Sequence record: KP869111
DNA: 64,000 nucleotides
Direction: 5' to 3' (one strand)
Source of the DNA: Escherichia coli O157 typing phage 13
Under the pieces are notes generated by a model. That model searched no databases. It was given only the letters and a program-made list of their open reading frames with translations, and was not told the origin of the DNA. How positions within the stretch are numbered: position 1 is the first letter of the stretch; each line of letters opens with the position of its first letter. Positions 10,121-52,639 of the stretch are shown piece after piece. The translations under genes and the position numbers were made by a program.

Positions 10121-10299
10121 GACTTAATTTCCTTCGCAATTGAACAGAAGATACCACGGTCACAAAGCATTTCACCAATTTCTGGATATTTGATTGAACG
10201 GTACCAAACATCCAGGCTTGAAACTCTGGTTATCTGTACTGCATTACCGTTGACAGAATAGTACTGGTCAACCTTAATTTCTTTATCTTCAATTGTCAT
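10117..10299 (-). CDS. Hypothetical small protein
   Basis: Track ORF 10117-10338; ATG at 10299 has a GAGGAA Shine-Dalgarno; first gene after the early promoter at 10329-10357. Confidence 0.45.
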   Translation of the reverse strand: MTIEDKEIKVDQYYSVNGNAVQITRVSSLDVWYRSIKYPEIGEMLCDRGIFCSIAKEIKS

Positions 10300-10328
10300 T
10301 TTATTTTCCTCTGTGGTAGATGGTGTTA

Positions 10329-10357
10329 ATCTTAACATATCTATCGAGGATGTAAAC
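10329..10357 (-). promoter_or_regulatory. T4-type early promoter (GTTTAC-N17-TAAGAT)
   Basis: Minus strand GTTTAC at 10357-10352, 17-nt spacer, TAAGAT at 10334-10329. Confidence 0.55.
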
Positions 10358-19505: not shown

Positions 19506-20033
19506 TTATGCGTGAACCGACTTTAAACGTTCTTCAAATTTCCGAAGAGTACTAATACGTTCTGCTTTCTGTTTTGTATAGTTTGCAATACGTTCTGAAG
19601 TGAGAGCGTATCGTTCGTTTACTGTTTCTTTCATGAAGTCAGGGATTTCACGAGAAGCTTTAATTTCATCAAACTTATCGAGTACTGCCTGGTCTTCAGC
19701 AATTAAATTTTCGTACATCTCGATATCTTTCTTGATGAAGTCGATATCTTCCTGGGTTACTTTGGATAAACGAGATGCTTTATCCTTTTTGTACTGCTCG
19801 TTAGTTTCACGAGACCAGAATAATGTACGTTTTTTGTTAGTGTTTTTGTAGACTTCCACAATTCCAACTGAATCGATGATAACAATCCAATTCCAGCGAG
19901 ATTTGAAAATCTGACCTCCGTCCACGGTAATCTCGTTACCATAAGCAATGTCATTAAAGAACTTACTTTGTGCTTCGGATTTAAATTTACCGTCGTTATA
20001 ATTTACCAGGTTGAAAATATCTTTAGCGTTCAT
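19506..20033 (-). CDS. Hypothetical protein with C-terminal coiled coil
   Basis: 175 aa; GGAGGT Shine-Dalgarno; charged helical C-terminal half. Confidence 0.55.
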   Translation of the reverse strand: MNAKDIFNLVNYNDGKFKSEAQSKFFNDIAYGNEITVDGGQIFKSRWNWIVIIDSVGIVEVYKNTNKKRTLFWSRETNEQYKKDKASRLSKVTQEDIDFIKKDIEMYENLIAEDQAVLDKFDEIKASREIPDFMKETVNERYALTSERIANYTKQKAERISTLRKFEERLKSVHA

Positions 20034-20060
20034 GTTTTACCTCCAGTAGTTGATAGGTCT

Positions 20061-20089
20061 ATAATAACATAACCATAGACCTTGTAAAC
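20061..20089 (-). promoter_or_regulatory. T4-type early promoter with flanking inverted repeat
   Basis: Minus strand GTTTAC (20089-20084), 17-nt spacer, TATTAT (20066-20061); inverted repeat AGGTCTAT/ATAGACCT at 20055-20062 and 20075-20082. Confidence 0.5.
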
Positions 20090-24095: not shown

Positions 24096-24202
24096 TTTAC
24101 CATACTCGTTTCAATAAGATTCACTATGCCGTTTACCATGTTATAAGTAAACATCGGATAATTGTATTGTACTACAACATAAGCGATAAGCAAAAGTTTC
24201 AT
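24092..24202 (-). CDS. Small hydrophobic peptide, 37 aa (not in ORF track)
   Basis: Hand-translated MKLLLIAYVVVQYNYPMFTYNMVNGIVNLIETSMVK; GGAGA Shine-Dalgarno 5 nt upstream; first ORF after the early promoter at 24231-24260. Confidence 0.3.
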   Translation of the reverse strand: MKLLLIAYVVVQYNYPMFTYNMVNGIVNLIETSMVK

Positions 24203-24230
24203 TTTGTTCTCCGTTTGTTTTGGTAGGACT

Positions 24231-24260
24231 ACTATAACATAGTCCTACCAAGATGTAAAC
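24231..24260 (-). promoter_or_regulatory. T4-type early promoter inside a palindromic cassette
   Basis: Minus strand GTTTAC (24260-24255), 18-nt spacer, TATAGT (24236-24231); 10-bp inverted repeat GGTAGGACTA/TAGTCCTACC spans 24222-24249; cassette near-identical to 34476-34512. Confidence 0.6.
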
Positions 24261-24473: not shown

Positions 24474-24653
24474 TCACATAATCTCGTTAACATACATTTG
24501 CAATTCAGTGTGGGCGTCGGCCATCTTTTTCATAGCTCTGTTAATGTCGATGTCTCCATCTTCGCACCCATGAGCATTTTCCCAATCAGATACCGCATTA
24601 GCATACTCTTCAATCAAAAACATCAACTTAGAAATCTTTTCTTTACGTGTCAT
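24474..24653 (-). CDS. Small protein, 59 aa (not in ORF track)
   Basis: Hand-translated MTRKEKISKLMFLIEEYANAVSDWENAHGCEDGDIDINRAMKKMADAHTELQMYVNEIM; GGAGA Shine-Dalgarno; follows the promoter at 24681-24709. Confidence 0.4.
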   Translation of the reverse strand: MTRKEKISKLMFLIEEYANAVSDWENAHGCEDGDIDINRAMKKMADAHTELQMYVNEIM

Positions 24654-24680
24654 AGCGTTCTCCTATAGTAAGTAAGGACT

Positions 24681-24709
24681 ACTATAACACAACCTGAGGA
24701 GAAGTAAAC
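24681..24709 (-). promoter_or_regulatory. T4-type early promoter with anti-Shine-Dalgarno inverted repeat
   Basis: Minus strand GTTTAC (24709-24704), 17-nt spacer, TATAGT (24686-24681); 7-bp inverted repeat TTCTCCT (24658-24664) / AGGAGAA (24697-24703), one arm being the Shine-Dalgarno of the 59-aa ORF. Confidence 0.55.
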
Positions 24710-24715
24710 TGATAG

Positions 24716-24748
24716 ATGCCAAAAAGCCCCAACCATAAGGAAGGGGCT
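24716..24748 (-). terminator. Rho-independent terminator after rI
   Basis: Minus strand AGCCCC-(12 nt loop)-GGGGCT followed by TTTTTG. Confidence 0.6.
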
Positions 24749-24754
24749 AGTAAA

Positions 24755-25057
24755 TTAGATAGATGTAGGCTCTAATTTTATTTTCATGAACTCGGCAAAT
24801 TGTCTGGCAGTTTTTATGCCTTGTTCATGACATTCAAATGCATCATCACAGGGACTATTTTTGTAATGCTTTGCCATATACTTATAGAATTTTTCAGAAT
24901 TCTCGACATTTTGAATTTCAAACAAAGTATATACGTTTTTAATCCCTGATTCCATAAAGTTATCAAAATATGGGTCGATATATGCAGTACCAACGATAGG
25001 AGTTGTTGCTGCAAAAAACCCCAGCATCGCCATGACAGCTATCGCTCTTAAGGCCAT
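24755..25057 (-). CDS. rI: Lysis inhibition regulator rI (membrane-anchored periplasmic protein)
   Basis: 100 aa; signal-anchor then DPYFDNFMESGIKNVYTLFE...CDDAFEC, matching recalled T4 RI (97 aa); AGGAGG Shine-Dalgarno. Confidence 0.8.
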   Translation of the reverse strand: MALRAIAVMAMLGFFAATTPIVGTAYIDPYFDNFMESGIKNVYTLFEIQNVENSEKFYKYMAKHYKNSPCDDAFECHEQGIKTARQFAEFMKIKLEPTSI

Positions 25058-25069
25058 ATAGGCCTCCTG

Positions 25070-25282
25070 TTAATTTTGGCCAGTATTTATTTTTCGCCTT
25101 TGGACGGCCTTAACATCTGTGAGGTATTTTTCCAGCTTGCGCTTGCGTGTATAATCAGCTTTAGAACCAGTTTGACGGATATCCTCGTTTAAATGAGAAA
25201 TAGAATGTCCTAATTCTCTTCGGATTTCATCCAATTGGGTTACAGTAAGATTACGAAGTTGTCTTTCGTTTAATTGCTGCAT
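25070..25282 (-). CDS. Hypothetical protein
   Basis: 70 aa; AAGAGGT Shine-Dalgarno; basic helical composition. Confidence 0.5.
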
Positions 25283-25309
25283 ATATACCTCTTGGTTAGA
25301 TATTAGTAT

Positions 25310-25891
25310 TTATAACAACCCTGTCAAATCATTCCAATGCTTCCGGCATAATGACACGTATCTATCGGTATCACCAATTTCAATTTGACTGCCATCTGTA
25401 ATTGGAAGTCCGTCTTCCGTGACTCTAGCTACCATTGTGGCCTTTTTACCGCAATGACAGACACCTTTAAGTTCAACAAGCTTATCGGCAATAGCCATTA
25501 ATGCTTGAGAACCTTCAAATAGATTACCTTTAAAATCTGTTCGTAGTCCATATGCCATTACTGGCACATTGTATACGTCAACAATACGACTAAGTTGATA
25601 CACCTTTTCAGTAGTTAAGAACTGAGCTTCGTCAACAAATACACAGTGAATATCCTTTTGTGCTGCAGCCCATTTATAGAATTCAAAGATATCCATGTCT
25701 TTTGTAATTATATTGGCATCCTGACGAATACCAATACGAGAGACTATTTCACCTTTTGAATCACGAGTATCAATAGCCGGTTTAAGAACTAATACACCCA
25801 TGCCACGTTCTTTATAGTTATGTGCGGCAGTAAGTAATGAAGAAGACTTACCAGCGTTCATAGCGGCATATGTAAAAATTAAACTAGCCAT
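25310..25891 (-). CDS. tk: Thymidine kinase
   Basis: 193 aa, same as T4 Tk; P-loop MNAGKSSSLL and C-terminal Zn-binding cysteines CHCGKKA...CRKHW; matches recalled T4 Tk. Confidence 0.93.
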   Translation of the reverse strand: MASLIFTYAAMNAGKSSSLLTAAHNYKERGMGVLVLKPAIDTRDSKGEIVSRIGIRQDANIITKDMDIFEFYKWAAAQKDIHCVFVDEAQFLTTEKVYQLSRIVDVYNVPVMAYGLRTDFKGNLFEGSQALMAIADKLVELKGVCHCGKKATMVARVTEDGLPITDGSQIEIGDTDRYVSLCRKHWNDLTGLL

Positions 25892-25900
25892 AAGAGTCCC

Positions 25901-26083
25901 TTATAGTGAATTCACGTAGTCAATGAGTTCTTGTTCTTTCCTGTCAAATGATTCCAACAATGCTTGATATTCTTCATCTGTTAAAGGAGCATATTCATCG
26001 TACGCATTGGTGGCTGCTTGCTCATCCAATAGGTCATGGATAAGTTCGAATAGTTTAGCTTTCTCTTCTTTAGTTAATTTCAT
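25901..26083 (-). CDS. Hypothetical small acidic protein (T4 tk.1 position)
   Basis: 60 aa ORF immediately upstream of tk. Confidence 0.45.
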   Translation of the reverse strand: MKLTKEEKAKLFELIHDLLDEQAATNAYDEYAPLTDEEYQALLESFDRKEQELIDYVNSL

Positions 26084-26286
26084 TTAGGTTCACCTTCTTT
26101 AACGAAATCTGGGTAAGGGTAAAATCCTGAGTAAAACCCTTCACCTTTATGATTGCTACAACCTTTGTTCGAACAGTAACACCAATAATCAAAATCACAA
26201 GCCATTTCGTCATTGCATAAAGCAAAAACTACAGGCCATTCGCATTTTTCGCATTTAGCACCTGTAAGAATTTTTGTTTGACTCAT
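26080..26286 (-). CDS. Hypothetical cysteine-rich small protein
   Basis: Track ORF starts with TTG; ATG at 26286 overlaps upstream stop; 10 Cys in 68 aa (CEKCEW...CNDEMACDFDYWCYCSNKGC). Confidence 0.45.
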   Translation of the reverse strand: MSQTKILTGAKCEKCEWPVVFALCNDEMACDFDYWCYCSNKGCSNHKGEGFYSGFYPYPDFVKEGEPK

Positions 26287-26495
26287 AACCATGTCACCTT
26301 TAAGCAATATTCTTCTACATGTTGTTTACGGCCTTTCTTATCAATAAAGGTATATTCAACGAATGTTCCGATGTAGTCTTTATCTACATCATGTGGACTA
26401 TTAATTGGACATTTGGTACGACAAATGCGTTCCCATTGACGAATAATTACTGCCTTATTCTTTGGGTCATATGGATGTGGATAATGTATATTCAT
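26283..26495 (-). CDS. Hypothetical protein
   Basis: Track ORF starts with TTG; ATG at 26495 (MNIHYPHPYDP...) overlaps upstream stop; 70 aa. Confidence 0.45.
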   Translation of the reverse strand: MNIHYPHPYDPKNKAVIIRQWERICRTKCPINSPHDVDKDYIGTFVEYTFIDKKGRKQHVEEYCLKVTWL

Positions 26496-26989
26496 AATAA
26501 CGGTTCCCAATCAACAATCACAATTTCTAGTTTAGTGGAATACGTATCTAAAATCTCTTCGATGACATCCCAGTTTCCGCCACCGATACCTGCACCAATT
26601 CTTGGCATATAAATTACAGGCTTTGTTATCTTATTCTTTCCGAATTCATTTAATTCTATTATACAATTCATTAAAGCAGAGTACTCAAAATTAGGTCCCG
26701 GCTCAAACTGCGTATAAAGATTAAAGCAATAAGCTTTATGGGTCTTAAAATATTTTTCATAAACCGAATAAGTCCCGAGTTTAGACTCGTCTCCGAATTC
26801 GGTTTGAAGTTTATCGGCTTCCAGAATTTTTGGATAAGCCTTTGCTAATTGTCCTGCCACACCGGCGCCCATTGTATGAAAACAATTACACCCATGAGCA
26901 ATATTATTACCTTTAGAAAACAGGGCGACAATATCGCCCTTGATATAGTTTTTAATCACTTGCTGCAAGTCCTCTAGTATAAGAGTCAA
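26492..26989 (-). CDS. Macrodomain-like protein (candidate ADP-ribose binding/hydrolase); start codon uncertain (TTG/GTG)
   Basis: 165 aa; two glycine-rich loops at macrodomain-like spacing: HTMGAGVAGQLAKAYP and IYMPRIGAGIGGGNW; no in-frame ATG near the N-terminus. Confidence 0.5.
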   Translation of the reverse strand: MTLILEDLQQVIKNYIKGDIVALFSKGNNIAHGCNCFHTMGAGVAGQLAKAYPKILEADKLQTEFGDESKLGTYSVYEKYFKTHKAYCFNLYTQFEPGPNFEYSALMNCIIELNEFGKNKITKPVIYMPRIGAGIGGGNWDVIEEILDTYSTKLEIVIVDWEPLL

Positions 26990-27299
26990 CTAGACGGTCC
27001 ACCATAGAATTGCATGCTGCCTTATCTTTAGGTTCCGCCACCGAGCATTCTAATATTTGCCATTTTTTATAGTATCTTTTAATTAAGGTAGACGCCTTGA
27101 ACCTACTAGACGCCCCATCTTTTTCTCCGTCTTTATACGCGTATAACAATTTTTGTGAAAAATCTACTTTACACTCTTGACTTTTACCACAATAATCAGA
27201 CGCCGTTCTGTTTGTATACTCCGTTACATCAGTATATGTAGTATTAGCAAGAGCGTTAAATGAAACCAAGCTAACTATTAAAGCCAACATTTTGGTCAT
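26952..27299 (-). CDS. Secreted protein with signal peptide (T4 vs position by synteny)
   Basis: 115 aa (the T4 Vs length); N-terminal MTKMLALIVSLVSFNALA signal peptide; four Cys; ATGA-coupled to the upstream gene. Confidence 0.5.
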   Translation of the reverse strand: MTKMLALIVSLVSFNALANTTYTDVTEYTNRTASDYCGKSQECKVDFSQKLLYAYKDGEKDGASSRFKASTLIKRYYKKWQILECSVAEPKDKAACNSMVDRLVDSYTRGLAASD

Positions 27300-27838
27300 T
27301 CTTTTATTTCCAGTAGTTTATTTGATTTAAGGTAATTAGCCTTTTCTAGGACTTCAGAAGCATATTTACTTCCAGCACTTGTCTTCCATCCCGCATTATA
27401 TGAGGATATGGCTTTTCTTATATCCCCGTTATGTATATTTAACCAATAAGAAAATTCGATATAAGCCCATCTGGCTGAATTAGACCGCTTAGATAGCATT
27501 TTCTTAATTTGGGCATCAGTCATATTATAACCAAGCTGGTTAATTCTTGCCCTCATTGTTGGTAGATAGTTTTGGAACATTCCATACGCATGGTGACCTT
27601 TCTTATCTTTAAGATTAATACCGGCAGATGATTCTTGCCATAGTATTGCGGCCATTATGTATCCAAGTCCTTTCTTATGCATATTTTCATGCGTTTTAAA
27701 TTTTCCATCCTTAGAAAACTGTTCCCCAAACTGATAAGCATAATTCAAGTTATCGAGTTGGACATTACTAAAAGTATGCTCGGAGCTATGTGCTGATAAC
27801 GAAAGAGCAAATAGACCAGCGAGTAGTGCTTTTCTCAT
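27296..27838 (-). CDS. Secreted lytic transglycosylase-like protein (SLT domain candidate)
   Basis: 180 aa; signal peptide MRKALLAGLFALSLSAHS; motif AAILWQESSAGINLKDKKGHHAYGMFQ resembles the SLT catalytic Glu-Ser and GLMQ-type motifs. Confidence 0.55.
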   Translation of the reverse strand: MRKALLAGLFALSLSAHSSEHTFSNVQLDNLNYAYQFGEQFSKDGKFKTHENMHKKGLGYIMAAILWQESSAGINLKDKKGHHAYGMFQNYLPTMRARINQLGYNMTDAQIKKMLSKRSNSARWAYIEFSYWLNIHNGDIRKAISSYNAGWKTSAGSKYASEVLEKANYLKSNKLLEIKE

Positions 27839-27846
27839 GTTTACCT

Positions 27847-28305
27847 CTAGATTTTAATCACTGCTTTAGAAGCTTTTCCTGGTAGTCGTTTACTGTTAAT
27901 AATAGCCATTCTGCATTGAAGAGTCTTCATTTTGAATGCTGGATTTTCGCGACAAACTGTAAGTCCTAACCAAAGATTTCCATCAGTTATTTCTAAACGG
28001 CCTGGGCGATATTCGACACCTTCGACAAAATCTTCATCAACATCTGGACGGGCTGGCATTGATAAAAATTCTGCAACTTCTTTAACATGATTTTTTACTT
28101 TATGAAATAATTCAAAAACGTAATTCTCATCTATTTCTCTCTGGATGGCACGATCTAAGAGATGTTGAGAATACTTGATATGAAAGCCTGGTAGTCCAAG
28201 AGACTTTGCAGCATCTTTTATACTGGCATTTATTTTGCGGAACTCCGTTTCAAAGATTCGACGGAGTTTATTGCGGCGGATAAAAACGTCTGAATTGATA
28301 GTCAT
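27847..28305 (-). CDS. regB: Endoribonuclease RegB
   Basis: 152 aa; MTINSDVFIRRNKLRR...YSQHLLDRAIQREIDE...GVEYRPGRLEITDGNLWLG...LQCRMAIINS.RLPGKASKAVIK matches recalled T4 RegB (153 aa). Confidence 0.75.
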   Translation of the reverse strand: MTINSDVFIRRNKLRRIFETEFRKINASIKDAAKSLGLPGFHIKYSQHLLDRAIQREIDENYVFELFHKVKNHVKEVAEFLSMPARPDVDEDFVEGVEYRPGRLEITDGNLWLGLTVCRENPAFKMKTLQCRMAIINSKRLPGKASKAVIKI

Positions 28306-28313
28306 TTTGATTT

Positions 28314-28354
28314 CTCCTCTAGTTGACAGGTCTATAGTAACACAACTAGAGGAG
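28314..28354 (-). promoter_or_regulatory. 12-bp inverted repeat sequestering the regB Shine-Dalgarno
   Basis: CTCCTCTAGTTG (28314-28325) and CAACTAGAGGAG (28343-28354); on the mRNA the 3' arm carries GAGGAG 8 nt before the regB ATG. Confidence 0.55.
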
Positions 28355-28362
28355 AAGTAAAC
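28334..28362 (-). promoter_or_regulatory. T4-type early promoter located within the regB hairpin
   Basis: Minus strand GTTTAC (28362-28357), 17-nt spacer, TACTAT (28339-28334); -10 lies in the loop of the inverted repeat. Confidence 0.55.
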
Positions 28363-28661
28363 TACTCTTTGAAAGGAATTAACTTTTTAACTGCTTTAGA
28401 TACTTCGTCACGAACCTGGTGGAAGTTCTTGAGCTGTTCAAGGCGTTGTTCGTAATACGCAATCTCATCTTCTTCAAGACAATCGTCAGCGTCTTCTTTC
28501 AGATATGCCTTGTACTCATTAAAGAGGGCCCATAGGCGGTTCTCAAAGTCATCAAGGCTTTGAATTTTCTTGTGCTTCGGAACAAGGCCAAAAGGATTGC
28601 TTTCAGTTATGCGTCGAGATGCTTCATAATGAGTTCCAAAGCCTGATAGGATTTGAGCCAT
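28362..28661 (-). CDS. Hypothetical protein
   Basis: Track ORF 28362-28703; ATG at 28661 overlaps upstream stop; 99 aa. Confidence 0.5.
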
Positions 28662-30506: not shown

Positions 30507-30932
30507 TTATACTCTAGGCTTTTGAGCTTGTTTGGTATTGGATTCCCATGCGGCTTTGGTAATTTTGTTAGTGGCATAACCAAAGGCATTAGATAGAACA
30601 CCTTTAGAGTTGAATACATCCAATCCAATAAGTACACCGGCTGTGTTAAATTTAGGAGCAAAGTACGCATTAGTTTTAGAAAGAGCTTTTTTCAATTCNN
30701 NNNNNNNNNNNNNNNNNNNNNNNNNNNNNNNNNNNNNNNNNNNNNNNNNNNNNNNNNNNNNNNNNNNNNNNNNNNNNNNNNNNNNNNNNNNNNNAGGGTC
30801 TTGAACCAAACCATCAAAAACGCCTTTACTATTTACTTTATATGTTACTTTGGGATTTTTACCTTCTTCGATAGCAGCTTTCTGTTCCGCAGATAATGTA
30901 ACTTCAGTGATAAACTCCTGATATGTTTTCAT
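30507..30932 (-). CDS. Internal head protein-like (capsid targeting sequence); interior masked by N-run
   Basis: Starts MKTYQEFITEV, the T4 internal-protein capsid-targeting leader; 96 N (30699-30794) inside the ORF. Confidence 0.6.
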   Translation of the reverse strand: MKTYQEFITEVTLSAEQKAAIEEGKNPKVTYKVNSKGVFDGLVQDPXXXXXXXXXXXXXXXXXXXXXXXXXXXXXXXXELKKALSKTNAYFAPKFNTAGVLIGLDVFNSKGVLSNAFGYATNKITKAAWESNTKQAQKPRV

Positions 30933-30940
30933 TTTGTTCC

Positions 30941-31354
30941 TTAGTAAATTGATTTACCATAGTATTTGTACCAAGTCGGACGTTGAGCAATTTTTTCATC
31001 TAAGCGTGCTTGACTTATCGCAATGGACGCTTCGGACGGGACGTAATTATTACGAAATTCTACAGGAATGTCGGAAATATCCTGGACTGTCGTGTCCTTG
31101 ATTTTGAAACCACGTTTCAAGCATTCGGCGATTAGCTCGATTTGACGTAAACGTAAAAATTCGAGTTTGTCGTAAAAGAATGTTACGTGACCTGTGCCTA
31201 AGATAAATGTTGGAGAGATTTTAAAATCCTTTACACGTTTACCGTTTTGAACATGTTTACGGACTGCACCAAATACGCGTGGTAATTCACGATACTCAGC
31301 CATAAGATGTTGGTCGGACAGTTCAGAAACAAGTGTTAAATTGATACGAGTCAT
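30941..31354 (-). CDS. denV: Endonuclease V (pyrimidine dimer DNA glycosylase) DenV
   Basis: Track ORF 30941-31366; ATG at 31354 gives [35 protein letters not shown], near-identical to recalled T4 DenV (138 aa). Confidence 0.9.
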
Positions 31355-31381
31355 AATTTCCTCCAAGTAGTTGATGAATGT

Positions 31382-31411
31382 ATAGTATCAAAACTCTTGG
31401 AGGAAGTAAAC
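31382..31411 (-). promoter_or_regulatory. T4-type early promoter upstream of denV
   Basis: Minus strand GTTTAC (31411-31406), 18-nt spacer, TACTAT (31387-31382). Confidence 0.5.
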
Positions 31412-31412
31412 A

Positions 31413-31694
31413 CTATTTTTCTGAAGCGCCTGAAATATATTTTTCAAGACGTTGTTTCATCAGCGAGCCGTTCTTAGCGATTTCTTCCGGTTTATCGCAC
31501 ATACGCAACAAGGCTTCAAGCTTAACGATATCACTGGTGCGCTCAAATTTGCGAGTATCTATCTTACTGGCAAGTTCAGAAATACGTGCTAATAGACTTT
31601 CAGCTTCAACCAAAGCTGCACCTAGCTTAGTTGCAAATGTGTCAGTAGCTTCGTTAAGAATAGATTCTGATAAAAATTCACTATATGTTTTCAT
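31413..31694 (-). CDS. Internal head protein-like (capsid targeting sequence)
   Basis: ATG at 31694 overlaps the e stop (ATGA) and gives [11 protein letters not shown]..., 93 aa. Confidence 0.55.
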
Positions 31695-32179
31695 ATATAC
31701 GCTTTCCAAGTTCCTGTTTTAAATGTTGAGATTACGCGTTTCGCTCGATTAGGTGTCTGACGGTACCATTTAGATTGGGCTAGATTTACTGCCGCTTCAT
31801 CCCAACGTTTCTGTTGAAGCATACGAAGAGAATTAGTAAAACCAGCGACGCCTGCTACACCCATTTGGAAGACCATATTGACCAATGCACATCGACGAAC
31901 CGCATCTAAAGAATCATATACCGGTTTAAGTTTAGCATTACCCAAGATTCCGCGAACGGCTTTATCAACGTCTTCATTAAATAGCTTTTCAGCCTCATCA
32001 AGGGTAATTGTACCGTTGCATTTACGTCCGATCATTCTGTCAAGTTCAGCTTTAGCTACGGCTAAAGACGGGTTCTTTGTTACTAAATGGCCTATGCCAA
32101 TCGTCCAAAAGCCTTCAGTGTCTTTGTATAAAGTCAGTCTAAGACCTTCGTCATTACGAAGCATTTCAAATATATTCAT
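31691..32179 (-). CDS. e: Lysozyme (endolysin) e
   Basis: Track ORF 31691-32191; ATG at 32179 preceded by GGGAGGT gives [31 protein letters not shown], near-identical to recalled T4 lysozyme. Confidence 0.93.
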
Positions 32180-32180
32180 A

Positions 32181-32206
32181 ATACCTCCCACGTTTATAGG
32201 AGGTAT
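32181..32206 (-). promoter_or_regulatory. Hairpin sequestering the e gene Shine-Dalgarno, with late-promoter-like sequence in the loop
   Basis: Minus strand ATACCTCC-TATAAACGTG-GGAGGTAT; the 3' arm is the Shine-Dalgarno; loop reads TATAAACG (6/8 match to TATAAATA). Confidence 0.5.
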
Positions 32207-32213
32207 TTATTAC

Positions 32214-32669: not shown

Positions 32670-32988
32670 CANNNNNNNNNNNNNNNNNNNNNNNNNNNNN
32701 NNNNNNNNNNNNNNNNNNNNNNNNNNNNNNNNNNNNNNNNNNNNNNNNTCGGTCCCATGATTTGGCCATTAATTCGGACATAAATTCTTCAATGCGCGTT
32801 TCTTTAGATGGACTTTCACTATTAGAGACCGCAAGTTTGTAATCTGCAATAGGACAGAACATATCAAGGTCCGTATTAAGGTCGTCTTTGATTTTTTCTT
32901 CTGACACATCTTTATCGTATGTGTACAGATAACTATCACATGATTCTGATTTAATGTAAATTGCTATACTCATCTCAAATTCCTGCAT
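32662..32988 (-). CDS. Hypothetical protein (C-terminal part masked by N-run)
   Basis: 108 aa track ORF; 77 N (32672-32748) cover its 3' end and the nudE 5' leader, so the true end is unknown. Confidence 0.35.
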   Translation of the reverse strand: MQEFEMSIAIYIKSESCDSYLYTYDKDVSEEKIKDDLNTDLDMFCPIADYKLAVSNSESPSKETRIEEFMSELMAKSWDRXXXXXXXXXXXXXXXXXXXXXXXXXXDE

Positions 32989-34148: not shown

Positions 34149-34454
34149 TTATTTTCCTCGACATTCTTTAATGAAATTTTCTAGATTGGTAGATTCAATA
34201 GCTTTTTTACGAGCTTCTGCGTGTTCTTCTTCAGACAATTTACATTTATAATTGACCCAGACGTTATGGTCGAAACTAGTCGTGGCATATAATAACAATG
34301 CTCCAACGAATAGCAAAAACGGCGATAAGAATACAAAACCAGGAACACCATCCATACTGTAAGCCTTTTGTAATACTGCAACAGAAAGAGCTGCGTAAAA
34401 AAGTGATACAAATATTGTTAAAAGACCAATTCGGTTGGTTTCGCCTAATTTCAT
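34149..34454 (-). CDS. Hypothetical membrane protein
   Basis: 101 aa; two hydrophobic helices then a charged C-terminus; first gene after the promoter at 34483-34512. Confidence 0.5.
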   Translation of the reverse strand: MKLGETNRIGLLTIFVSLFYAALSVAVLQKAYSMDGVPGFVFLSPFLLFVGALLLYATTSFDHNVWVNYKCKLSEEEHAEARKKAIESTNLENFIKECRGK

Positions 34455-34482
34455 AATATTCTCCTCATGTTTTAATAGGACT

Positions 34483-34512
34483 ACTATAACATAGCCCTAT
34501 CAAGATGTAAAC
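34483..34512 (-). promoter_or_regulatory. T4-type early promoter inside a palindromic cassette (copy of 24222-24260)
   Basis: Minus strand GTTTACATCTTGATAGGGCTATGTTATAGTAGTCCTA; 35 of 37 nt identical to the cassette at 24222-24260. Confidence 0.6.
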
Positions 34513-50987: not shown

Positions 50988-52639
50988 GTAATAACAATAC
51001 ATACCAACACGTTTCAAACGAATCCATTTACGTTGAATTCGACCCTACGGGGTCGAATTTTCCAGATACAGTCACTAATGTCCAAGCCGCATTAGCTGCT
51101 ATTTCTCCTTCAGGTGTTAATGGTGTACCGGAAGCAACAACTACTACACCAGGAATTATTCAAATAGCTACTCCACAAGAAGTTATTGATGGACTAGATA
51201 ATAGTAAAGCTGTTACTCCGGCATCACTGAATGCTCGTCTACAATATCCTAATGCAACCGAAACTCAATATGGCTTAACTCGTTATGCTACTGAAGATGA
51301 AGCAGTAACAGGAACTATTGACGATGCATCAATTACTCCGCTTAAATTGAATCAAAAAATAGACAATGTATTCCAGACAAAAGTGTCAACAGAAGCATCA
51401 AATGGTGTAATTAAAATTTCGACTTCTGCTGCGGCATTAGCCGGTTCTGACGATACGACGGCAATGACTCCGTTAAAAACGCAACAATTGGCAATTAAAC
51501 TTATTTCGCAAATTGCTCCAAATAATAGTGACGCCACTGAATCTATTACCGGTGTTGTTCGTTTGGCTACAGTTGCTCAAGCGCAACAAGGCACCCTGCG
51601 TGAAGGCTATGCAATTTCACCTTATACCTTTATGAATTCAGTAGCATCAGAAACTAATAAAGGTGTCGTTAAACTAGGGACACAGACTGAAGTAAATAGT
51701 AACAACTCTTCAGTTGTAGTGACCGGCGCAACATTAAACGNNNNNNNNNNNNNNNNNNNNNNNNNNNNNNNNNNNNNNNNNNNNNNNNNNNNNNNNNNNN
51801 NNNNNNNNNNNNNNCGTGGGGCTACAACTTCTTTACGTGGAGTTGTTCGTTTAACTACACAAGCTGGTAGCCAATCAGGTGGTGATGGTTCTTCTGCCCT
51901 TGCTTGGAATGCTGATGTTATCCACCAACGAGGCGGACAAACTATTAATGGCACGCTTCGCATTAATAATACGTTGACTGTTGGTTCTGGTGGCGCTAAT
52001 ATAACGGGTAATGTCAATATGACCGGTGGTTATATTCAAGGCAATCGTATTGTGACTCAAAATGAATTAGACCGAATTCTCCCAGTTGGCGCTATTACAA
52101 TGTGGGCTGCAGATAGTTTACCGAGTTCTGACTGGCGCTTCTGTCACGGTGGGACCGTTTCTGCTTCAGAATGTCCGGTATATGCTTCCAGAATTGGGAC
52201 ACGATATGGCGGTAGTTCTTCTAACCCAGGCTTGCCTGATATGCGTGGATTATTTGTTCGCGGCTCAGGTCGTGGCTCTCACTTAACAAATCCAAATGTT
52301 AATGGTAATGACCAGTTTGGTAAGCCTAGATTAGGTGTAGGTTGTACCGGTGGATATGTCGGTGAAGTGCAAAAACAACAGATGTCATATCATAAGCATG
52401 CTGGCGGTTTTGGTGAACATGATGATTCTGGAGCATTCGGTAATACCCGTAGATCAAATTTTGTTGGTACACGTAAAGGACTTGACTGGGATAACCGTTC
52501 ATACTTCACCAATGACGGATATGAAATTGACCCGGCATCACAACGAAATTCCAAATATACATTAAATCGTCCTGAATTAATTGGAAATGAAACACGTCCA
52601 TGGAACATTTCTTTAAACTATATCATTAAGGTAAAATAA
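50984..52639 (+). CDS. 12: Short tail fiber gp12 (interior partly masked by N-run)
   Basis: 551 aa including 74 N (51741-51814); synteny between gp11 and wac; repetitive Gly/Thr-rich fibre sequence. Confidence 0.88.

Follow-up and report, generated by a model that had tools for sequence, protein, structure and literature searches.

The stretch of DNA analysed here comprises 64,000 nucleotides (nt) of Escherichia coli O157 typing phage 13 (sequence record KP869111), hereafter the window, and its main subject is the short intergenic region that carries the promoter and the ribosome-binding site of regB, the gene for a nuclease that destroys early mRNAs. We found that the spacer between the −35 and −10 elements of the regB early promoter is complementary to a leader segment that contains the Shine–Dalgarno (SD) sequence of the gene; the two segments form a perfect inverted repeat of 14 base pairs (bp), with the −10 element in its loop. 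Judged by its statistics and by its behaviour in related phages, this hairpin is non-random and evolutionarily maintained. The best-supported and most economical reading of the predicted folds is that translation of regB is gated by the choice of promoter, a reading to which we give slightly better than an even chance.

The genes under study all lie on the minus strand, so the RNA runs from high to low coordinates. The RegB protein encoded in the window is 100% identical to that of phage RB69, and it matches Pfam PF10715 (E = 2e-69, 232.7 bits against a cut-off of 27). The 951 bases surrounding the gene show 100% identity to E. coli O157 typing phage 3 and ~75% identity to T4 and T2. Because of these nucleotide identities, the identity to RB69 RegB, and the Pfam match, the window is classed by sequence as an RB69-type (Mosigvirus) T4-like phage.

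Promoter and hairpin at regB

The elements of the regB region are as follows.

28357..28362, minus strand: −35 hexamer GTTTAC of the regB early promoter, a T4-type early −35 consensus
28343..28356, minus strand: 5′ arm of the hairpin, UUCUCCUCUAGUUG (anti-SD plus extension), the whole arm lying within the 17-nt −35/−10 spacer
28334..28339, minus strand: −10 hexamer TACTAT, located in the 17-nt loop of the hairpin
28312..28325, minus strand: 3′ arm of the hairpin, CAACUAGAGGAGAA, carrying the SD GAGGAG (28319..28314), from the inverted repeat and predicted pairing
27847..28305, minus strand: regB coding sequence, 152 amino acids, with its start codon ATG at 28305, from the open reading frame (ORF) call and Pfam PF10715

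The order on the coding strand is ...aaagagTAGTTTAC-UUCUCCUCUAGUUG-ugu-UACUAU-agaccugu-CAACUAGAGGAGAA-aucaaa-AUG. GTTTAC is the −35 consensus of T4-type early promoters (PMC1524935), and the regB promoter, GTTTAC-N17-TACTAT, is of the early sigma-70 type, while no late promoter TATAAATA was found in the region of the cassette and no Rfam family covers it. The TAG stop codon (28364..28362) of an upstream ORF of 113 amino acids overlaps the −35 element, with the last G of the stop serving as the first base of GTTTAC.

The initial annotation had described a perfect 12-bp inverted repeat here (28314-28325 and 28343-28354), with the SD in the 3′ arm and the −10 element in the loop. The repeat exists as described and was understated, being perfect to 14 bp (28312-28325 and 28343-28356), or 19 nt long at 89%. 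Perfect inverted repeats of at least 12 bp with a loop of at most 40 occur twice in the 64-kb window, against 0.28 expected from dinucleotide shuffles; both are at early promoters with the −10 element in the loop, and the one at regB is the longest in the window.

We placed the regB transcription start at ~28327 from the usual 7-nt spacing after the −10 element, which is ~2 nt ahead of the 3′ arm. The 5′ arm lies entirely upstream of this predicted start, and the promoter's own transcript would therefore be without it. The two kinds of RNA are predicted to differ strongly. For an 86-nt regB RNA that contains both arms, the predicted folding energy is −23.2 kcal/mol (z = −3.6; none of 200 shuffles is as stable), the helix alone being predicted at −21.3 kcal/mol, whereas a 38-nt RNA from ~28327 is predicted to be unstructured, with the SD open. 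The probability that the 3′ arm pairs with the 5′ arm is 0.98, 0.97, and 0.95 with 0, 60, and 150 nt of extra upstream RNA, respectively. The earlier proposal that read-through RNA hides the regB SD and that RNA from the embedded promoter leaves it open thus agrees with the predicted folding. A terminator scan found no strong terminator between the denV promoter (31411) and regB.

SD accessibility was also screened over 83 heuristically called genes in the window, with start regions defined as 110 nt upstream plus 40 nt downstream. The lowest unpaired probabilities of the SD (all ~0.000) among these start regions belong to regB, denV (31354..30941, minus strand), and the lysozyme gene e (32179..31691, minus strand). 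Directly ahead of its AUG, gene e has the hairpin AAUACCUCC-UAUAAACGU-GGGAGGUAUU (32207..32180, minus strand) in its start region; this is a textbook SD-sequestering hairpin and serves as the internal positive control of the screen.

Conservation of the hairpin across T4-like phages

We took regB loci from IMG/VR and GenBank phages, which gave 38 distinct −35-to-ATG sequences from more than 10 T4-like lineages. The distance from the −35 element to the ATG is 59-65 nt in all 38, and the SD pairs with the promoter spacer in the minimum-energy fold of 30 of them, by way of at least 10 different stem sequences. These folds range from −14 to −23 kcal/mol in coliphage-type lineages and from −6 to −9 kcal/mol in Aeromonas phages, and the own-promoter transcripts of the homologues are predicted to be unstructured, all at ~0 kcal/mol. 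The lineage stems include CUAGUUG/CAACUAG (Mosigvirus), CUUGACUG/CAGUUAAG (T4, with G-U pairs), UUUUAGU/ACUAAAA (Kanagawavirus), and UGUAG/CUACA (Dhakavirus), with CUUUAUG/CAUAAAG, UGUAAG/CUUACA, AUUUG/CAAAU, and CUUG/CAAG as further variants. The anti-SD also tracks an altered SD: GAGGAU is found with AUCCUC (L055), and AGGAGG with CCUCCU (L057).

A MAFFT alignment of 31 full promoter-to-ATG sequences mis-registered the SD columns and was not used for pair counts; a half-swap energy test and an SD-anchored alignment were therefore used instead. In the half-swap test over 13 lineages, cognate 5′ and 3′ halves fold at −18.9 kcal/mol as compared to −10.7 kcal/mol for non-cognate halves (permutation p < 1e-5). 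The anchored alignment is ungapped, registered on one pair, which the first G of GGA forms with its partner, and takes in only sequences whose SD paired with the spacer in their own fold. Measured on the 14-pair helix of the window, 79% of its cells are paired, and at 11 of the 14 pairs both partners vary (51 cells). For covariation the helix scores 0.366; shuffles score 0.12, with none of 500 attaining the observed figure, and controls in which the partners are slid by 1-3 columns score 0.08-0.10.

denV and related promoter cassettes

A comparable element lies at denV.

31358..31411, minus strand: denV early promoter and hairpin, with GTTTAC at 31411..31406 and TACTAT at 31387..31382, from the promoter motif and predicted pairing

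Here the spacer arm UUCCUCCAAG (31405..31396) and the SD-containing CUUGGAGGAA (31367..31358) form a perfect 10-bp hairpin (P = 0.975). Together with regB and a second site proposed in the initial annotation (the 59-amino-acid ORF discussed below), denV is a clean third case; it is stronger than that second site and had not been listed before. Across T4-like phages the denV SD is occluded either by a spacer arm or by an arm made of the −10 end and the discriminator, and the promoter's own transcript would be without either type of arm. These two architectures with the same outcome argue that occlusion of the SD, and not merely a hairpin, is kept.

The T4 denV cassette GTTTACATCTCCTGTAGGTATGATACTATAGACCTATCAACTACAGGAGAA is almost identical over 55 nt to a Dhakavirus-type regB cassette (L054); one cassette therefore serves different genes in different phages. 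Such sharing is, at the level of sequence, consistent with mobile cassettes of the early promoter plus stem-loop (PeSL) type, which are bounded by an upstream stop and by the SD and ATG (Arbiol 2010, PMC2839356; Comeau 2014, PMC4122927). In the published PeSLs the stem-loop is often between or across the −35 and −10 elements and has been read as a terminator or attenuator and as a recombination site, with the SD drawn separately (PMC2839356, PMC4122927). The regB element has the same anatomy, namely an upstream stop, a sigma-70-like early promoter, an overlapping stem-loop, an SD, and an ATG in one stop-to-ATG intergenic unit. As with PeSLs, related cassettes recur at several loci before different genes: promoters of the form GTTTAC-N16-18-TANNNT number 14 in the window (13 on the minus strand), against 3.1 expected. 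The elements at regB and denV are thus PeSL-type early-promoter cassettes, but they differ from the published ones in that the SD itself makes up the 3′ arm, and in that the stem lacks a U-tract and does not resemble a terminator; at regB, moreover, the pairing co-varies with the SD.

In the window, the strong cases that include the SD are regB, denV, and a 60-amino-acid ORF at 10299; in T4 they are regB, denV, motB.2, nrdC.8, mobD.5, and mrh.2. At the early promoter of the 60-amino-acid ORF (10299-10357, minus strand), the SD GAGGA is paired with UCCUC of the spacer, and UAGAU/AUCUA forms an inner helix; the unpaired probability of the SD is 0.001 and the fold is −11.5 kcal/mol.

Further features of early promoters were recorded along the way. 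Repeats of 8-12 bp with the −10 element in the loop and without the SD are present on the minus strand at 24202-24260, 34454-34512, and 20033-20089 (e.g., UUGGUAGGACU / AGUCCUACCAA), and the hairpin at 34512 has two G-U pairs that are valid in sense RNA only. In T4, hairpins of this kind that stop short of the SD are found at ipI, ipII, dmd, and mobD.2. A leader motif, AUCAACUAC, recurs between the −10 element and the SD in many early-promoter cassettes. The window also contains three masked runs of N, at 30699-30794 (96 bases), 32672-32748 (77), and 51741-51814 (74).

Proposed mechanism

In the mechanism that we favour, the −35/−10 spacer of the regB cassette would encode an anti-SD arm and the leader the complementary arm with the SD. 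RNA that comes in from upstream promoters (read-through from denV or farther upstream, of the delayed-early, middle, or late type) would carry both arms and fold into the 14-bp hairpin (~−21 kcal/mol), which would bury the regB SD and lead to poor translation. The same hairpin would bury the GGAG that RegB needs in single-stranded form, so that long RNAs would be shielded from RegB at this site. RNA from the embedded promoter, without the 5′ arm, would be freely translated, and RegB synthesis would thus be confined to the short period in which early promoters fire. Since early promoters are off after 2-3 min in T4 (PMC3014915), gating would limit RegB synthesis to a short burst. What the analysis shows for regB is the layout of the cassette, its predicted folds, conservation accompanied by compensatory changes, and an SD occlusion at outlier level; where exactly transcription starts, whether and in what amount read-through RNA is made, and how translation is affected are inferred.

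Alternative roles of the hairpin

A number of observations weigh against promoter-dependent gating, or limit its reach. SD pairing was not seen at regB in Gaprivervirus and Tegunavirus, the regB of Marfavirus has an 11-bp hairpin across the −10 element that leaves the SD free, and no promoter was found at regB in RB49-type Krischvirus (also PspYZU05). Chance pairing is also frequent. Among early promoter/start-region pairs from the first 76 kb of T4 (n = 25) and from the window (n = 14), the SD is paired with its own spacer in 8/25 and 3/14, respectively, as compared to 34% and 32% of chimeras that combine a promoter with the start region of another. Because chimeras pair the SD as often, bare SD/anti-SD pairing is not evidence of design, and counts of SD-to-spacer pairing were dropped from the argument; the evidence for selection is in the extended stems only. 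The frequency of bare pairing is explained by an enrichment of anti-SD tetramers (CTCC, CCTC, and TCCT) in the spacers, where they occur in 7 of 25 in T4 (6% background, p = 6e-4) and in 4 of 14 in the window (6.6% background, p = 0.011), mostly within the first 9 nt past the −35 element. Cognate promoter/start folds are nevertheless ~4 kcal/mol better than chimeras (p ≤ 5e-5), because their stems extend past the SD core.

Many other early promoters, in the window and in T4, carry hairpins across the −10 element that end short of the SD, and what is selected in general may be the presence of a hairpin across the promoter, not occlusion of the SD. Such hairpins would suit a stem-loop that acts as the terminator or attenuator half of a PeSL cassette and damps upstream transcription, the involvement of the SD being incidental. 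PeSL stem-loops between or across the −35 and −10 elements have been proposed as terminators, and one GC-rich PeSL lowered lacZ expression as strongly as rrnB T1 (PMC2839356). At regB, however, the stem is followed by AAAUCAAAAUG with no U-tract, the terminator scan gives no flag there, and we rejected the stem as an intrinsic (Rho-independent) terminator for want of a U-run. The SD is also kept inside the stem in more than 10 lineages, even where the SD sequence changes, occlusion of the denV SD is kept by two architectures, and a genuine terminator candidate is present separately at the second site. We consider a terminator role at regB unlikely.

The inverted repeat could also act in DNA and not in RNA, as a hairpin or cruciform that aids cassette recombination (PeSL shuffling) or promoter opening. 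In a comparison intended to tell selection on RNA from selection on DNA, the sense fold is not significantly more stable than the antisense fold overall (11/18 lineages, p = 0.14), which leaves a DNA-level role for the repeat conceivable. The near-identical 55-nt cassette before T4 denV and Dhakavirus-type regB is as expected of mobile cassettes, and recombination within PeSLs has been demonstrated (PMC2839356). Recombination, however, needs identity between cassettes and not complementarity within one. G-U pairs, which are valid in sense RNA only, are found in the T4, sb4, and ESCO47 stems, and the T4 stem, with three of them, folds at −21.4 kcal/mol in sense as compared to −12.2 kcal/mol in antisense. 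Within one genome, different promoters have different stems with their complementarity kept, which argues against a common protein operator, and we rejected the operator reading on this ground. We regard a function in DNA as very unlikely.

With the upstream stop codon 6 nt ahead of the 5′ arm, ribosomes that terminate there could open part of the stem. This is the basis of a translational coupling model, in which a ribosome ending at the stop (28364..28362) enters the 5′ arm and frees the regB SD, so that regB on long RNAs is translated only in step with the upstream gene. The coat and replicase genes of RNA phage MS2 are coupled in this way through an SD-sequestering hairpin. As there, the SD of the downstream gene would be locked with a strand at the end of the upstream cistron, but at regB the 5′ strand is past the stop codon, in the promoter spacer, and the internal promoter offers a structure-free route. 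In nearly all lineages the upstream stop overlaps the −35 element or lies 0-4 nt before it, which places the 5′ arm 6-11 nt downstream. Ribosomes standing at a stop codon cover roughly 9-10 nt past it, and would here unpair ~5 nt of the arm, those that face GAGAA in the SD region; yet ~9 bp of the stem would be left, including half of the SD core. The tight spacing of stop and −35 element is general in compact cassettes, also in those without SD pairing, and the analogous hairpin of gene e represses ~100-fold (PMC3014915). Coupling seems to us no more probable than termination.

The second site

The initial annotation had extended the same logic to a 59-amino-acid ORF (positions 24658-24703), for which the following elements were found.

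24725..24748, minus strand: intrinsic terminator-like hairpin AGCCCC...GGGGCU followed by UUUUU (AGCCCC...GGGGCUUUUU, 24748..24720), directly upstream of the second-site promoter
24681..24709, minus strand: early promoter GTTTAC-N17-TATAGT, from its motif, with TTCTCCT (24703..24697) in the spacer
24658..24664, minus strand: SD AGGAGAA of the ORF, whose pairing with 24703..24697 is not predicted to form
24646..24691, minus strand: competing helix of UGUGUUAUAGU (24691..24681, including the −10 element) with GCUAUGACACG (24656..24646, including the AUG), which dominates the predicted fold
24474..24653, minus strand: ORF of 59 amino acids, Pfam DUF7438 (E = 1.4e-16, profile match)

The complementarity of TTCTCCT and AGGAGAA is indeed present, but the helix is not predicted to form: its 7 bp give −5.6 kcal/mol across a 32-nt loop, its probability in the ensemble is 0.000, and shuffled sequences fold as well as the region does (z = −0.34). 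The complementarity is very probably a by-product of a shared promoter cassette and an ordinary SD, with no gating function. Chimeric controls show the same SD/spacer pairing at 32-34%, and 7-bp inverted repeats with short loops are commonplace in the window (245 against 175 expected). The promoter is identical to that of regB at 24 of 29 positions and yet has no complement to the distal part of the arm. It also follows directly after the intrinsic terminator-like hairpin, and limited read-through is therefore expected.

Some points favour a function at this site. In close relatives the pairing reads GAGGAGAA and extends to 8 bp, anti-SD tetramers are enriched in early-promoter spacers, and the AUG of the ORF is predicted to be paired in the long RNA (unpaired probability 0.002-0.008) through the competing helix, which would also be missing from the promoter's own transcript. 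This helix is, however, not better than shuffles. The context of the second site is kept in near-identical Mosigvirus copies only, and the T4 relatives of the ORF (mobD.2a/mobD.3 region, ~47% identity) have no promoter in front. What the 59-amino-acid ORF shares is thus just the cassette's generic anti-SD, and it is improbable that the ORF is gated in this way.

The RegB cleavage motif

T4 regB has an early promoter of the typical kind, which is off after 2-3 min, RegB cuts within the SD of its own gene, and structure protects RNA from the enzyme (PMC3014915, PMC1702504). The SD of regB in the window had likewise been said to contain the RegB motif. The GGAG itself is present (28317..28314), but its context misses the 11-nt consensus of RegB and S1, GGAGRAYARAA, at positions 7, 8, and 9, the context being GGAGAAAUCAA (C at position 9) as compared to GGAGAAUAACA in T4. 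C is reported to be totally absent at position 9, and a C there was linked to poor cleavage of denV RNA by Durand et al. (PMC1702504). Because the 3′ context departs from the consensus at positions 7-9, self-cleavage of regB RNA is less certain in this phage than in T4, and it may differ between RB69-type and T4-type phages. Autoregulation in this phage would resemble that of T4 in the GGAG of the regB SD and in the typical early promoter of the gene, and would differ in the AAAUCAA context, off the consensus at three positions, and in the structural layer added by the hairpin, of which we found no description for T4.

The GGAG is predicted to be single-stranded only in the short regB transcript, which suggests another role for the hairpin. 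Pairing of the GGAG could spare long polycistronic RNAs, which also carry the vs.1, vs, and tk genes, from RegB, or could act as a stability barrier, so that autoregulatory cleavage falls on the short regB transcript only. RegB needs a single-stranded GGAG and is readily inhibited by secondary structure (PMC3014915, PMC1702504), and such protection is compatible with the folding and conservation data. Against it stand the AAAUCAA that follows the GGAG, with its C at position 9, and the T4 denV gene, which has the same kind of hairpin though its SD is resistant to RegB anyway (PMC1702504). Protection is not exclusive of translational gating and could operate alongside it; as the explanation of the hairpin we think it quite unlikely, a little more so than termination or coupling.

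Relation to known systems and significance

Promoter-dependent gating at regB has its closest likeness in the T4 genes e, soc, 49, and I-TevI (and some homing endonuclease genes), which have structures that sequester the start region, all of them with late promoters (PMC3014915). The comparison with e, 49, and I-TevI that had been drawn earlier is apt, and gene e of the window scores like regB in the accessibility screen. As in these genes, the regB SD is by prediction in a stable helix on transcripts that start upstream, RNA from its own promoter would lack the 5′ strand of the helix, given a start at ~28327, and translation is predicted to be limited to one temporal class. The promoters differ, being late TATAAATA in the T4 genes and early sigma-70 type (GTTTAC-N17-TACTAT) at regB, so that regB falls outside the class as defined by a late promoter. 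The 5′ arm at regB is also placed in the otherwise unconstrained −35/−10 spacer, and expression is predicted to be early-only rather than late-only. The mechanism is known for late promoters, and regB would be an early-promoter version of it. In the papers that could be searched or read, neither regB nor denV is described as having an SD hairpin of this kind at its early promoter; a prior mention is possible in older subscription works (Sanson & Uzan 1993, Mosig et al. 1998, and the 1994 T4 book).

If confirmed, these results would extend the classic promoter-dependent translational gating of T4 to early genes, with the opposite temporal sign, and the −35/−10 spacer would gain a second, RNA-level coding role. 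They would provide a testable reason for a brief burst of RegB, and would assign to PeSL stem-loops, which are widespread, a role that is not termination. The comparative set, with its more than 10 stem variants, amounts to a collection of natural compensatory mutants usable in experiments. Time-resolved omics of T4 show that the timing of transcript and protein disagrees for many genes (PMC9697503), and the regB finding bears on this question.

The regB finding is of value mainly because it draws attention to a class of early-promoter cassettes in which the spacer serves also as an anti-SD. Among T4-type early promoters, a sizeable subclass may have a spacer-encoded anti-SD arm, in a ~60-nt cassette that fires early and silences translation (and RegB cleavage) on read-through RNA; we hold this wider proposal tentatively and think it doubtful, although more probable than any of the alternative roles considered for regB. 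If it is true, each cassette would decide separately whether its gene is translated from long RNAs of the delayed-early, middle, and late classes, and the phage would possess a genome-wide, mobile, immediate-early-only translational switch, which could account for cases in T4 where RNA and protein differ in their timing.

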